Shown here: positions 23,048-52,719 of the stretch, piece after piece | Layout: each line of letters starts with the position of its first letter | How positions within the stretch are numbered: the first letter of the stretch is position 1 | Assembly: GCA_035438525.1 (NCBI GenBank) | Contig: DAORIL010000001.1 | Span: forward strand, 1-57,852 | Origin: Pyrinomonadaceae bacterium | Lineage (GTDB): Bacteria > Acidobacteriota > Blastocatellia > Pyrinomonadales > Pyrinomonadaceae | Direction: 5' to 3' | DNA: 57,852 nt | Position numbers and translations under genes: made by a program | The notes under the pieces: generated by a model | Database searches by the model: none | What the model was told of the DNA's origin: nothing | What the model saw: the letters and a program-made list of their open reading frames with translations, nothing else

Positions 23048-25293
23048 CTTTTTTCTGTGCTGCTTACTCTACCTGATTGTATCAGACGGTCGCGGATTCG
23101 ATGTTGCCAATTGGTGCGGGGATGTTCGGCATCTTCAAATTTTGTTAATAAATCCTGCATTGATTCGCCACCTGCCTGACGGGTTTTGAAATAAAGTAAC
23201 GCTGTTATTATAGACGTAAAAGAGGAAATAAGAAAAATTATCGGCATCCAGATCAATTCAAAAATCGCGGTTCCGATTCCGACTCTTTTTTCCATTCTTC
23301 TCATTTTTTCTTTATCTGATTCGGTATCTTTATCATCATCAGAGATTTTAACTCCATGAGGTCCGACAGAAATATTTACATTGTCGTCATCTGCCGCCTT
23401 TTGTTCAATTTTTGTGCTTTCTACAGGTTGCGGCGAAAATCCTTTGATAATTCCCTGAATCGCAAAACTTATGATAATTGCTAAAATAGTTGGAATCAGA
23501 TAAACGATCAGCGAAGTCCCTAAAACTGTTAAAAAGGAACGTTTGACAAGTTCGACCGAGCGCCGAAAGGCTACTCTGCCGCTTAATCCTTCCATCATTA
23601 TCGATGGAGTAATCAGCATATATCTCGCCGAAAGATAAAGTCCCGGGAAAAAGCAAAGAACGAATCCGAATAAAGCTAACAAAGTAGAAACCGTGACAGT
23701 TTTCAAAAGCGGTTTCCACTTTTTTCTTAACTCACTAAAGGCATTTCTGATCTGTATCGGACGCAGCGGAACTGCCAAAATTTGCGCAACGATCCAGGTT
23801 GTAGCACCAACCAACATCGTTGAATAAAACATTTTGACAAAGAAATCAGCAAAAGAGAGAACAATCTTGGTAGTTATCCAGACTGCATTAGCAGATACGG
23901 CTTCTGTTGCCACCAGTAGATCAACTACAACCTTGGCAAAATTAGTAATAAAAAAAGGAATTGCCAGGATCAATGAGAGCAATAGAAATTTTGGCAAATG
24001 TTCGCCGTAAATGGCTAAAGCTTTTGTAAATAAAGCTCCGATTCCTTCGGAATGAGCGCGTAAAGTGCTGGCGAAAGCTTCGGCAGTTTGCGGACGCTCA
24101 TCCGTATTTTTTGCCAATGCCGAAAATAATACTTTCTTGACTTTGCGCGGAATCTTTTTTGCTTCCAAAGGTGGCGGTGCAACTTCTTTGTGCGAATCCA
24201 TTACTTCGGTAAAATTACCCGTAAAAGGTGTTTTGCCCGACAGCATTTGATACGCAATAATCGCCAAACTGTAAATATCGGAACGAGGCGTAAGTTTTTC
24301 CCCGCGGCACTGTTCCGGCGACATATAAAGCGGTGTGCCTAAAACCGCTCCGACTCTGGTTAATTCGGCAGTTGCAGGATTTCCCAAAGCTTTATCAGTA
24401 TCTGCATTTGAAATTAACCTGGTGCCTTTTTCATCCTTTTCAATCAGTTGCGTTCCTTTATTTTCGTCTGGAAAAATCGCGGTTCCATCTTCCAAAGAAA
24501 TTTCGGCGGCAGGGAAAATTGCCGTTCCTTTTTCATCACTGACCGAGAGAATTGCCGTTCCTTTTTCATCGTTAGCAGAAAAAATTGCGGTTCCTTTTTC
24601 ATTAACAGGATTTTGAATCAGAGTTCCGCCTTCACCGATCATTGTTGCACTGCGATTTTCGATAATTGTCTGAGCATTGGTCTGATCAGCCAGAGTGTCG
24701 CCGTGCTGCAAGGCTTGAGTCGGCGTAGTTGTGGTCGGATTGAGCAACGCTTTTTCGTTTTCGTCACTGCTCATCGGTTCTTCGAGCTTGGCAATCCCAA
24801 AATCTAAAACTTTTACCGTATAACCGCCGCGCTGATTCGGTTCAAGCCAAATATTATCAGGTTTTAGATCACGGTGAATAATGCCTTGACCATGCGCTTC
24901 GTGAACTGCTGAACAGACTTGTTCCAAAATATCGAGCGTCCATCCCAGAGGCAGTTGTTTTTCTTCTTCTAAAATTTCGCCGAGCGTGCAGCCGTCAAGA
25001 TATTCCATCACCAAATAGGCGACGCGCCCTTGCGAAGTCTCGGCAAAACCAAAATCGGTCACATTAACCACGTTTGGATGTCTTAACCTGCCTGCCGCCC
25101 GTGCTTCACGACGAAACCGTTCGACAAACTCAACACGCTGCATAAATTGCGGAACGATAACTTTTAGTGCCACAGGTCTTTCCGTTCCAATGTGCATTGC
25201 TAGATAAACGGCACCCATTCCGCCGCGCCCAAGCTCTCTTTCGATTGAATATTTACTGTCGAGCGTTTGCCCGATGAGACTTTCTAAATTCAT
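23044..25293 (-). CDS. Ser/Thr protein kinase with repeat-rich linker and multi-pass C-terminal membrane domain
   Basis: GRGGMGAVYLA...ALKV, HRDLKPDNIW, DFGIAK and GTPLYMSPEQ are Hanks kinase motifs. The linker contains EKGTAIF-type repeats. About 6 TM segments lie in the C-terminal half. Confidence 0.9.
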   Translation of the reverse strand: MNLESLIGQTLDSKYSIERELGRGGMGAVYLAMHIGTERPVALKVIVPQFMQRVEFVERFRREARAAGRLRHPNVVNVTDFGFAETSQGRVAYLVMEYLDGCTLGEILEEEKQLPLGWTLDILEQVCSAVHEAHGQGIIHRDLKPDNIWLEPNQRGGYTVKVLDFGIAKLEEPMSSDENEKALLNPTTTTPTQALQHGDTLADQTNAQTIIENRSATMIGEGGTLIQNPVNEKGTAIFSANDEKGTAILSVSDEKGTAIFPAAEISLEDGTAIFPDENKGTQLIEKDEKGTRLISNADTDKALGNPATAELTRVGAVLGTPLYMSPEQCRGEKLTPRSDIYSLAIIAYQMLSGKTPFTGNFTEVMDSHKEVAPPPLEAKKIPRKVKKVLFSALAKNTDERPQTAEAFASTLRAHSEGIGALFTKALAIYGEHLPKFLLLSLILAIPFFITNFAKVVVDLLVATEAVSANAVWITTKIVLSFADFFVKMFYSTMLVGATTWIVAQILAVPLRPIQIRNAFSELRKKWKPLLKTVTVSTLLALFGFVLCFFPGLYLSARYMLITPSIMMEGLSGRVAFRRSVELVKRSFLTVLGTSLIVYLIPTILAIIISFAIQGIIKGFSPQPVESTKIEQKAADDDNVNISVGPHGVKISDDDKDTESDKEKMRRMEKRVGIGTAIFELIWMPIIFLISSFTSIITALLYFKTRQAGGESMQDLLTKFEDAEHPRTNWQHRIRDRLIQSGRVSSTEKR

Positions 25294-40967: not shown

Positions 40968-41185
40968 AATTAACCATTATGACCACGACTTTAGAAGTGA
41001 TTTACGAAAACGGTATTTTTAAACCACTTTCGAGCGTTCCGAAAAATTTCAAAGAACACGAAAGGATGAAAATTATTATTGAAACCGAATTTGATGCAGA
41101 TTTAGAAAGCGAAATTGCTCAATGGGAGCAAGCAAGCGATGAGGATTTTTTAAAATTTGAAGAGGCTTTAGGAGAAAAACCTTAA
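40961..41185 (+). CDS. Antitoxin, DUF104/AF2212-like
   Basis: ...TLEVIYENGIFKPLSSVPKNFKEHERMKIIIE matches the DUF104 pattern (IEAxYENGVFKPL...). The true start may be the ATG at 40979. The stop overlaps the toxin ATG (TAATG). Confidence 0.6.
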   Translation: MLKLTIMTTTLEVIYENGIFKPLSSVPKNFKEHERMKIIIETEFDADLESEIAQWEQASDEDFLKFEEALGEKP

Positions 41186-41526
41186 TGGCTCGCGGGGATG
41201 TTTTGTTAGTTAGTTTGCCTGTTAGTGAGACCCGCGAACAATCCGGTCGCCGTCCGGCAATTGCATTGCAAACTGATATTATGGGCGAACCAATGCTGAT
41301 GATTGCCCCAATTACTTCAAATCTAAGTGCCTCAAGATTTGCGTTTTCTGTCCAAATCGAACCTTCTCCAGAAAACGGTTTGACTCAAACTTCTATTGTG
41401 ATGATTTTTCAAATGCGTGCGATTGATAAAACTAGAATTATCAAGAAAATTGGTGAACTTTCCAAATCAGATTTAGAAAAAGTTGATACTCAAATCTGGA
41501 AAATGCTTAAACCTAACAATGAATAA
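41185..41526 (+). CDS. mazF: Type II toxin, MazF/PemK family endoribonuclease
   Basis: [31 protein letters not shown]...IAPITSN...IDKTRI is the MazF signature; 113 aa. Confidence 0.8.
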
Positions 41527-52442: not shown

Positions 52443-52451
52443 AAAATCAGG

Positions 52452-52524
52452 TGGAGGAGAAAAGGAGTCGAACCTCTAACTTCGCTTTTGGAGAGCGATA
52501 TTTTTCCGTTAAACTATCTCCTCC
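52452..52524 (-). tRNA. tRNA-like gene 3 of 3; anticodon loop CUCCAAA (CCA, Trp-type); 8-bp acceptor stem
   Basis: Minus strand, folded by eye: GGAGGAGA-TA-GTTT-AACGGAA-AAAT-A-TCGCT-CTCCAAA-AGCGA-AGTT-AGAGG-TTCGACT-CCTTT-TCTCCTCC-A. Confidence 0.6.
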
Positions 52525-52531
52525 GAACTTA

Positions 52532-52603
52532 CGGAAAGGAACAGGACTCGAACCTATAATCAAGATTGGCAATCAAGCGTTTTCCCCTTAAACTATCCTT
52601 TCC
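52532..52603 (-). tRNA. tRNA-like gene 2 of 3; anticodon loop UUGCCAA (GCC, Gly-type); weak anticodon stem; 8-bp acceptor stem
   Basis: GGAAAGGA-TA-GTTT-AAGGGGA-AAAC-G-CTTGA-TTGCCAA-TCTTG-ATT-ATAGG-TTCGAGT-CCTGT-TCCTTTCC-G. The anticodon stem has two U-U mismatches and the variable loop is 3 nt. Confidence 0.45.
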
Positions 52604-52610
52604 AAATTGA

Positions 52611-52684
52611 CGGAAAAGAGCAGGACTCGAACCCAACAAATCTAGCTTGCGGAGCTAGTGTTTTTCCTTTAAACTATCTTTTCC
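52611..52684 (-). tRNA. tRNA-like gene 1 of 3; anticodon loop UCCGCAA (CGC, Ala-type by position, C at position 33); 8-bp acceptor stem
   Basis: GGAAAAGA-TA-GTTT-AAAGGAA-AAAC-A-CTAGC-TCCGCAA-GCTAG-ATTTG-TTGGG-TTCGAGT-CCTGC-TCTTTTCC-G. Confidence 0.5.
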
Positions 52685-52690
52685 AAAGAG

Positions 52691-52719
52691 ATTATAGGAT
52701 TTAGAAGGCTTTTAGTAAA
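52691..52719 (-). promoter_or_regulatory. Sigma-70-type promoter of the tRNA-like array
   Basis: On the minus strand: TTTACT (52719-52714), a 17-nt spacer, then TATAAT (52696-52691). The -10 element ends 6 nt before the first tRNA-like 5' end. Confidence 0.55.

Follow-up and report, generated by a model that had tools for sequence, protein, structure and literature searches.

Arrays of tRNA-shaped RNA genes are linked to a zinc-ribbon SDR gene and a ribonuclease-inhibitor-type LRR gene in at least eight bacterial phyla

What kind of RNA is encoded by three tRNA-like genes that stand in tandem directly ahead of a gene for a short-chain dehydrogenase/reductase (SDR)? The question is raised by a contig of 57,852 nt from an activated-sludge metagenome, assigned to a Pyrinomonadaceae bacterium (GCA_035438525.1, DAORIL010000001.1; ~39% G+C), which was analysed over its full length and is referred to here as the window. 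The initial annotation of this DNA described the tRNA-like genes but overlooked that the array belongs to a conserved cassette of three parts, the other two being the SDR gene, encoding a protein with a zinc-ribbon-like motif, and a gene for a leucine-rich repeat (LRR) protein of the ribonuclease-inhibitor (RNI) type. This cassette has apparently not been described before, and a full-text literature search found no description of an association between tRNA-like genes, SDR and LRR. We provide comparative evidence that the units of the array belong to a conserved family of tRNA-shaped RNAs with an 8/5 acceptor/T helix, that this family is bound to one particular pair of protein genes, and that its members are probably not ordinary decoding tRNAs.

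The linkage between RNA and protein genes carries most of the argument. A search with the SDR protein, limited to one genome per species, returned 80 loci from very different phyla at ~50% identity. Among the genome loci, with the window included, tRNA-like units stand at 39 of the 41 loci that encode both SDR and LRR (one to six units within ~2 kb) and at none of the 40 loci that encode the SDR alone. A search for the same array upstream of orthologous SDR and LRR genes had been proposed as a check when the locus was first annotated, and it proved decisive. The SDR-only proteins form a separate single clade in a neighbour-joining tree, and within families the SDR tree largely tracks taxonomy. 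A second sample came independently from metagenome contigs, with the LRR protein as the seed. Here each of the 37 loci that have SDR, LRR and enough flanking sequence also has units, and none were found at the distant LRR paralogues without an SDR (~17 in this sample). Altogether ~76 loci in at least eight phyla encode SDR and LRR, nearly all of them with one to seven units adjoining. They come from Cyanobacteria, Bacteroidota, Armatimonadota, Planctomycetota, Burkholderiales, Deinococcota, Chloroflexota and Acidobacteriota, and the same cassette is found in Tolypothrix and Scytonema (Nostocales) and in Deinococcus cellulosilyticus. The closest relative of the window cassette (L003) is annotated as an acidobacterial metagenome-assembled genome.

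The arrangement of the three parts varies. In the majority of loci the order is array, SDR, LRR on one strand. In Chitinophagaceae, Saprospiraceae and locus L123, however, the array is convergent and lies on the opposite strand just past the LRR stop codon (nine genome loci plus L123), and at L048, L052, L154 and L157 the units lie downstream of the LRR gene on the same strand. The comparison of loci indicates that the RNA family is tightly and specifically linked to the SDR-LRR pair in at least eight phyla, whatever its orientation. No other gene travels with the cassette: Pfam gave no recurrent neighbour family among 130 flanking open reading frames (ORFs) at 33 loci, and clustering the ORFs of the loci returned only SDR, LRR and antisense shadow ORFs. 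Some genomes are unusually rich in these elements. Whole cassettes are present twice in Chitinophaga filiformis (L009 and L010, identical) and in Hymenobacter aranciens (L008 and L013), Xanthocytophaga flavus has nine units in two arrays (L004 6689-6942 and 9422-9966), and the metagenome locus L091 has six units in a row.

A phage or plasmid origin was considered and rejected. In blastn searches the array had no match in plasmids and only a weak likeness over 52-106 nt to phage tRNAs (the tRNA-Trp of crAss001 and tRNAs of Bacillus phages), its scaffold pattern was not found in viral contigs, and tblastn with the LRR protein gave no match in phages or plasmids. PADLOC returned no defence-system match.

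The fold of the RNA family is supported by a wealth of compensatory change. A covariance model, R1, was built from 58 units and used to rescan the loci, where it confirmed the contrast between SDR-LRR and SDR-only loci and recovered units that ARAGORN had missed, such as arrays of four at Burkholderiales loci. In the model-based alignment 94% of the cells assigned to stems are paired, vs 63% in shuffled and no more than 53% in slid controls, and compensatory double changes occur in 21 of the 22 pairs. Pairing reaches 96% of cells in the acceptor stem (8 pairs), 99% in the D stem (4 pairs), 97% in the T stem (5 pairs, 4 of which covary) and 84% in the anticodon stem (5 pairs). Complementary bases form the eighth acceptor pair in 92 of 109 family members, where ~37.5% would be expected (binomial p ~1e-23, the units not being independent). 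This pair covaries (GC 67, UA 18, AU 5, CG 3, UG 1), and G:C closes the stem in only ~60% of units. The 8-bp acceptor stems that had been folded by eye are thereby borne out, and ARAGORN draws them in all three window units. Since all five T-stem pairs are kept, the fold is 8/5, a helix of 13 bp, and not 8/4. Positions U8, A14, G18G19 and those of the T loop are near-invariant across the family, which leaves the tRNA elbow intact; the variable loop is a short one of 3-6 nt.

The nucleotide sequence of the units appears to be held in place as well. At L003 the protein genes have drifted to the 61% G+C of their host; its units, however, stay at 39-49% G+C and remain 75-85% identical to those of the window, which argues for selection on the RNA sequence itself. 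From covariation and conservation alike we conclude that a tRNA-shaped RNA family with an 8/5 helix is conserved, and that strong purifying selection, visible in compensatory changes across phyla, maintains its structure.

An eight-pair acceptor stem could be that of tRNA-His, and the units had been read in this way, with a G-1 paired to C73. The encoded tails bear on this reading. They read as a paired eighth pair, then one unpaired nucleotide, then CC(A): ACCA at L068, L070 and L076, CCCA at L017, UCCA at L009 and L010, and ACC in, among others, unit 3 of the window. The form with N before a full CCA occurs in six cases, and CCA directly after the eighth pair in one. Units 1 and 2 of the window encode no tail, each 8-bp stem being followed by G. 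Because the tails consist of 8 bp + N + CC(A), the geometry is 8/5 with a separate discriminator, as in bacterial tRNA-Sec (PMC8450103, PMC7609411), and not that of tRNA-His. The tRNA-His interpretation is therefore not supported: the unpaired nucleotide precedes CC(A) in the tailed members, including unit 3 of the window, and the T stem keeps its five pairs. The family does share with tRNA-His eight acceptor pairs, mostly closed by G:C, and a genome-encoded extra 5' G; in tRNA-His, however, it is the discriminator that forms the eighth pair, with CCA immediately after it. A GUG anticodon is absent from the family, and the window units carry CGC, GCC and CCA.

The likeness to bacterial tRNA-Sec has limits of its own. 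Both have the 13-bp acceptor/T helix of 8 + 5 bp, a separate discriminator and then CCA. Unlike tRNA-Sec, however, the family has a variable loop of 3-6 nt rather than a long arm, a D stem of 4 bp rather than 6 bp, anticodons that vary freely and are not UCA, and a discriminator that is mostly A rather than G (A 47, C 28, U 27, G 7). Moreover, its units are arrayed beside the SDR-LRR pair, with no selA, selB or selD in their context. In tRNA-Sec the 8-bp acceptor stem lowers the affinity for EF-Tu ~100-fold and is a determinant for SelB (PMC7609411), so that the extra pair is both an EF-Tu antideterminant and a handle for dedicated proteins (PMC7609411, PMC8450103).

The anticodon arm is hardly that of a decoder. 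Of the 83 units whose anticodon loop has 7 nt, 55 (66%) have U33, and in 10 of 93 units (~11%) the loop is 6 or 8 nt long; A37 is kept in 87% of units. In Burkholderiales the anticodon loops are palindromic (AUUGCAU, AUGGCAU), which makes the arm a long hairpin. Anticodons vary freely across the family and differ between orthologous units: aligned with units of L003, the 'Trp(CCA)' unit of the window reaches 85% identity to the 'Met(CAU)' unit and the 'Gly(GCC)' unit 80% to the 'Ser(GCU)' unit. A long variable arm is missing from units whose anticodons would make them 'Ser', 'Leu' or 'SeC'. Across the family the discriminator shows no correspondence with the anticodon, and G3:U70 is essentially absent from 'Ala' units. 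By the identity rules for Ala, Trp and Gly (established knowledge and PMC9976931), the window units have no matching elements in either register, whether G3:U70 for Ala, G73 for Trp or U73, C2:G71 and G3:C70 for Gly. Charging according to the anticodon is thus rejected, as the discriminator and the 3:70 pair break the rules. The family departs from canonical decoding tRNAs in its acceptor stem (8 rather than 7 bp), in its anticodon arm (U33, the 7-nt loop and the intact stem are not consistently kept) and in its identity elements. On these comparisons the anticodon arm is relaxed, the identity elements for aminoacyl-tRNA synthetases are absent and the family members are probably not ordinary decoders, in agreement with the earlier suspicion that the three window genes are not ordinary Trp, Gly and Ala tRNAs.

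The window array itself (Table 1) fits this picture. In the whole 57.8 kb ARAGORN calls three tRNA genes and no others, which form one array on the minus strand, and the only Rfam matches in the window are three to RF00005, each above the gathering threshold of 29 bits. Both programs thus call the three genes, whose anticodons are of the Trp, Gly and Ala type, and the covariance models do not reject them. ARAGORN gives unit 1 an acceptor stem of 8 bp, GGAAAAGA/UCUUUUCC, followed by G; unit 2 one of 8 bp, GGAAAGGA/UCCUUUCC, also followed by G; and unit 3 one of 8 bp, GGAGGAGA/UCUCCUCC, followed by A and an encoded CC. As first described, unit 1 has C33 instead of U33 and the anticodon stem of unit 2 has two U-U mismatches. 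Unit 1 also has a T-stem mismatch or bulge and no G3:U70, and the variable loop of unit 2 has 3 nt; the cloverleaf of unit 3 is otherwise clean, with a perfect anticodon arm. The D stem is 4 bp and the variable loop 3-5 nt in the window units. The layout also stands as originally given, with spacers of exactly 7 nt (discriminator counted in), the promoter 6 nt upstream of the array and the SDR start codon (52442) 9 nt past the end of unit 3. So does the common, AT-rich scaffold: the units are 66-77% identical to one another at 43-45% G+C, and TRF reads the array as a 79-nt tandem repeat. CCA is indeed not encoded, with only ACC after unit 3.

Table 1. Features of the window, with positions counted from the first nucleotide of the contig
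Feature	Position	Strand	Remarks
Sigma-70-type promoter TTTACT-17-TATAAT	52691..52719	-	10/12 consensus matches; -10 ends 6 nt 5' of first G of unit 1
Unit 1 'Ala(CGC)'	52611..52684	-	ARAGORN; RF00005 48.6 bits; model R1 63.7 bits
Unit 2 'Gly(GCC)'	52532..52603	-	ARAGORN; RF00005 49.7 bits; model R1 59.3 bits
Unit 3 'Trp(CCA)'	52450..52524	-	ARAGORN; RF00005 63.1 bits; model R1 77.5 bits
Zinc-ribbon SDR-type protein, 459 aa	51063..52442	-	Directly downstream of array
LRR_6 ribonuclease-inhibitor/RanGAP-type protein, 387 aa	49906..51069	-	7-nt overlap with SDR stop
IS200/IS605-type Y1 transposase, 150 aa	49350-49802	-	Directly downstream of LRR gene
GNAT, longest ORF 156 aa	52744-53214	-	Upstream of array
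M1 peptidase, longest ORF 452 aa	53114-54472	+	
Three tandem paralogous small genes, 145, 130 and 125 aa	45031-46348	-	MamF/MmsF-family matches; between purS/purQ and purB
PemK-type toxin and overlapping AF2212-like (antitoxin-like) gene	~41063-41526	+	L001 16327-16790; ~10 kb from cassette
33-nt tandem repeat, 2.7 copies	24515-24602		83% matches
ORF of 749 aa	23044-25293	-	Contains the 33-nt repeat

A promoter-like match of this kind is not significant by itself (10 in a 3-kb region vs 6.8 expected), and it is its position relative to the units that recurs in relatives. Among 71 units that stand first in an array or alone, 33 have a TATAAT-like hexamer that ends 6-9 nt 5' of the unit start, and in 23 the distance is exactly 7 nt; these counts take in close relatives and are not independent. 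At the Burkholderiales loci examined (L068, L070, L071, L076 and L078 of Undibacterium, L072 and L077 of Massilia, L073 of Variovorax) every unit has a TATAAT -10 element of its own exactly 7 nt ahead of it, successive units being 80-110 nt apart, and Chitinophagaceae arrays are preceded by the Bacteroidota motif TAnnTTTG. Given this spacing, the transcription start probably coincides with or adjoins the nucleotide that opens the 8-bp stem, which would independently favour the 8-bp form as the native 5' end.

The SDR protein has three regions. A basic helical N-terminal region is followed by an invariant zinc-ribbon-like motif, CxxC...H...H..C..C (C99, C102, H110, H114, C117, C120), and by a classical SDR Rossmann domain with TGGRxKIG and an NADP-type Arg168, in which the catalytic Tyr of YxxxK is replaced inside the invariant motif HPHTNMAK. 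Its AlphaFold2 model has a pLDDT of 84, and its structural matches in the PDB are generic classical SDRs only. The LRR protein is modelled as a plain RNI-type horseshoe (pLDDT 93.8) and matches RNH1 (E = 4.5e-54). Pfam finds only the SDR and LRR domains in the two genes, and it returned nothing significant for the isolated N-terminal domain of the SDR, the SDR insertion or the LRR N-terminus. The SDR family, uncharacterised and with more than 8000 members, is widespread as a solo gene. It extends to eukaryotes, where unnamed homologues occur in choanoflagellates, oomycetes and a euglenid (P0318, P0357, P0407, P0405 and P0424, from Entosiphon, Mylnosiga, Salpingoeca rosetta, Pythium and Achlya), with extra N-terminal regions and larger insertions.

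The two proteins also occur as natural single chains of 726-940 aa, a full LRR partner followed by a full zinc-ribbon SDR (P0313, P0315, P0362, P0376), and these fusions argue that the two act together. Three of the six fused loci (L143, L149, L159, L165-L167) have units directly upstream, and the other three have none within 4 kb. We therefore rejected the notion that the RNA replaces a covalent link, which would place units only where SDR and LRR are separate; L143, L149 and L159 are fused and have them. Beside the fused gene of L165 (6526-8915) stand a divergent EF-Tu paralogue (281 bits vs NCBIfam EF-Tu cut-offs of ~450-520) and a class-V aminotransferase, a single case that suggests chemistry of the aminoacyl-tRNA type.

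How might such RNAs work? We lean, somewhat beyond even chances, towards a reading in which the units are tRNA-shaped RNAs that have no part in decoding and are dedicated to the SDR-LRR pair, with which they act in trans. The array would be transcribed from its own strong promoter, and promoter spacing suggests that the 5' end of the transcript is the first G of the 8-bp stem or a neighbouring nucleotide. Host RNase P, RNase Z or exonucleases, together with the CCA-adding enzyme, would separate the units and finish their ends, and in the window the same transcript would run on into the SDR and LRR genes. Covariation and the tails encoded in relatives point to a tRNA L-shape with G18G19, a TΨC-type loop, the 13-bp 8/5 helix, a discriminator and CCA. 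The extra pair, the missing identity elements and the relaxed anticodon arm would exclude the RNAs from EF-Tu and the ribosome and mark them for dedicated partners, by analogy with tRNA-Sec, which is likewise reserved for SelA and SelB. Genetic linkage suggests that the acceptor/T/D 'top half' may be bound by the basic-helix and zinc-ribbon region of the SDR, by the LRR horseshoe, or by both, and that the RNAs may serve an NADP(H)-dependent activity as its substrate, cofactor or regulator. A more specific proposal, which we put forward only tentatively and hold to fall somewhat short of an even chance, is a new ribonucleoprotein or enzyme system in which an NADP(H)-dependent zinc-ribbon SDR, working with its RNI-type LRR partner, has private tRNA-shaped RNAs, marked by their 13-bp helix and excluded from translation, as its substrate, carrier or allosteric ligand.

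Several observations weigh against dedicated trans-acting RNAs. No unit lies within 4-10 kb of the genes at L045, L081 and L141, which have both, or at the fused loci L165, L166 and L167. None of the invariant residues, those of the zinc motif included, has been lost in the SDR-only clade or the eukaryotic homologues; the core activity of the SDR therefore needs no neighbouring tRNA-like gene. In the window the array is co-oriented with the protein genes and abuts the start codon, and at this locus a role in cis is possible. Finally, minimum-free-energy folding of the window units does not recover the full cloverleaf; single-unit folds retain the 8-bp stem (z = -2 to -3), and the array as a whole has a z of -0.27. 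Such failure is common for AT-rich unmodified tRNA sequences and hence uninformative.

The alternative nearest to hand is that the array acts in cis as tRNA punctuation, its promoter and RNase P/Z sites setting the ends or stability of the SDR-LRR mRNA, or the ratio of RNA to protein, while the freed RNAs have no function. Co-transcription of tRNA and protein genes and tRNA-like processing signals (mitochondrial punctuation, mascRNA) offer precedents (PMC8457004 and general knowledge). The 9 nt between the last window unit and the ATG leave no room for a separate promoter, the array is upstream on the same strand in most loci, and at L048, L052, L154 and L157 the units stand at the 3' end of the operon. 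The convergent arrays on the opposite strand, however, cannot belong to the SDR-LRR mRNA, and in Burkholderiales each unit has its own -10 element and a wide spacer. A cleavage signal, moreover, would need no conserved D/T-loop core, no conservation across a shift from 39% to 61% G+C and no two to seven copies; nor would punctuation explain the tie to one gene pair in at least eight phyla, as SDR-only genes do without an array. Processing or punctuation signals, which the initial annotation had listed among its readings, thus survive as a weaker rival, and one we consider unlikely, with the arrays on the opposite strand and downstream of the genes counting against them. That annotation had also offered a decaying mobile tRNA array. 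In this version the units would be pseudo-tRNAs or an integration scar hitch-hiking with a mobile SDR-LRR pair, for which one could cite the AT-rich sequences, the mismatches in units 1 and 2 and the IS200-type transposase gene just downstream of the LRR gene. Decay is contradicted by purifying selection with compensatory changes, by pairing that reaches 96-99% across phyla in every stem but that of the anticodon, by promoters conserved at a fixed distance and by sequence kept against the drift of host G+C; mobility is contradicted by the absence of the cassette from the plasmid and phage collections and of any integrase or conserved mobile-element gene nearby. Largely refuted by covariation, this reading is barely tenable. 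The opposite-strand arrays and the conservation at the nucleotide level weigh most strongly against the cis and relic readings.

That the units are genuine, if unusual, decoding tRNAs, such as extra isoacceptors or suppressors used under specific conditions, seems very improbable. They do score above the Rfam tRNA threshold with an intact tRNA core, A37 and a 7-nt loop are kept in most of them, and the Trp-like anticodon arm of the window is perfect. The 8/5 helix is an EF-Tu antideterminant (PMC7609411), however, and U33 is kept in only 66%, some loops are abnormal, identity elements are absent, orthologous units switch anticodon and class II 'isotypes' lack the long variable arm; decoding would, besides, leave the linkage to SDR and LRR unexplained. 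A conflict system akin to type III toxin-antitoxin pairs, in which the units as RNA antitoxin or regulator would hold the proteins inactive until a phage or stress trigger, is improbable as well. In ToxIN, tandem ~36-nt RNA repeats that are not tRNA-like are cut by the toxin itself, an endoRNase, and the units bind the toxin. The cassette resembles it in its succession of promoter, tandem structured RNA units and protein gene, and its patchy spread over phyla at ~50% identity between homologues, the plausibility of an RNI/NLR-type LRR as a sensor and the two identical copies in one Chitinophaga genome would all suit a conflict system, as would the report of allo-tRNAs and irregular tRNA polycistrons near toxin-antitoxin genes (PMC5389517). 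Yet Pfam finds no ToxN/AbiEii-type endoRNase, nuclease or other obvious toxin domain in the cassette, PADLOC is silent, the neighbours bear no signature of a defence island or mobile element, the cassette is not on the plasmids and phages searched, and the SDR family is widespread as a solo gene, occurs in eukaryotes and follows taxonomy for the most part within families.

Other tRNA-shaped RNAs are known to serve a particular enzyme or function instead of the ribosome, as we propose for the trans-acting units, and to have altered EF-Tu-binding features. One is the Staphylococcus tRNA-Gly for FemXAB; another non-proteinogenic tRNA is the tRNA-Other of Bacillus cereus (cited in PMC5389517). Both differ from the present family in that they keep a 7-bp stem and a defined amino-acid identity and are not arrayed beside SDR and LRR genes. 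The nearest published precedent lies in the work of Mukai et al. (2017), who described allo-tRNAs with 8/4 or 9/3 structure, a 12-bp domain, a long variable arm and diverse anticodons, and also 'polycistrons of irregular tRNAs' of about three units from probable Acidobacteria, some of them with G-1 (PMC5389517). Some tRNAs of the irregular polycistrons were charged in vitro by E. coli HisRS and not used in translation, and an association with toxin-antitoxin or transposon genes was noted, with no SDR or LRR link reported (PMC5389517). Like the present family, the allo-tRNAs are bacterial tRNA-like genes that depart from the canonical form in their longer acceptor stems and very varied anticodons; unlike them, the window family keeps five T-stem pairs (8/5) and a short variable loop. 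Compared by description only, the irregular polycistrons share with our arrays their polycistronic form, G-1, acidobacterial origin and GCU units in which an additional nucleotide precedes the D stem, and the two may overlap, since the closest relative of the window cassette is annotated as acidobacterial.

A looser parallel is the human mitochondrial TRMT10C-SDR5C1 (MRPP1/2) platform of RNase P and ELAC2, which holds degenerate AT-rich tRNAs (PMC11996679, PMC10941002). There too a classical SDR-fold protein belongs to a complex that holds tRNAs, the similarity to our SDR being only generic; SDR5C1, however, has no zinc ribbon, keeps its catalytic Tyr and is partnered by a methyltransferase rather than an LRR protein. 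The large tRNA arrays of bacteria and phages differ in holding many canonical isotypes and in being often mobile, whereas the arrays described here have one to seven units on one scaffold.

If the trans-acting reading is correct, the cassette would represent a new tRNA-dependent, non-ribosomal pathway, for example chemistry on the 3'-terminal ribose or an attached group, or RNA-coupled redox sensing. Such a system would be common to eight bacterial groups, and its protein family would reach choanoflagellates and oomycetes. An 8/5 domain in class-I tRNA-shaped RNAs is essentially unknown outside tRNA-Sec, and that such a family is kept by selection in at least eight phyla, always next to this pair of genes, suggests a new use of the tRNA fold outside translation. 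The RNA partner would also be the first functional handle on this SDR family and on bacterial LRR proteins of the ribonuclease-inhibitor type. A practical consequence concerns annotation: the units pass tRNA detectors and are presumably miscounted as tRNA-Trp, -Gly, -Ala, -Cys or 'undetermined' in hundreds of genomes, which would distort inferences on tRNA sets and codon usage. Culturable hosts include Chitinophaga, Niastella, Hymenobacter, Undibacterium, Deinococcus cellulosilyticus, Gloeothece and Nostocales, with Chitinophaga filiformis, Undibacterium pigrum and Gloeothece verrucosa among the species. OZ244065.1, NZ_CP165719.1 and GCA_000760695.4 are examples of complete genomes with the cassette.

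The window has further features outside the cassette. The IS200/IS605-type transposase gene is not conserved at other loci. The longest ORFs of the GNAT and M1 peptidase genes overlap head to head, an overlap that disappears with the shorter starts of the public calls (129 and 433 aa). Farther away lie the PemK-type toxin gene and its overlapping antitoxin-like neighbour, which make up a small toxin-antitoxin pair, the short tandem repeat inside a long ORF and, among the purine genes, three tandem paralogous small genes with matches to the MamF/MmsF family.

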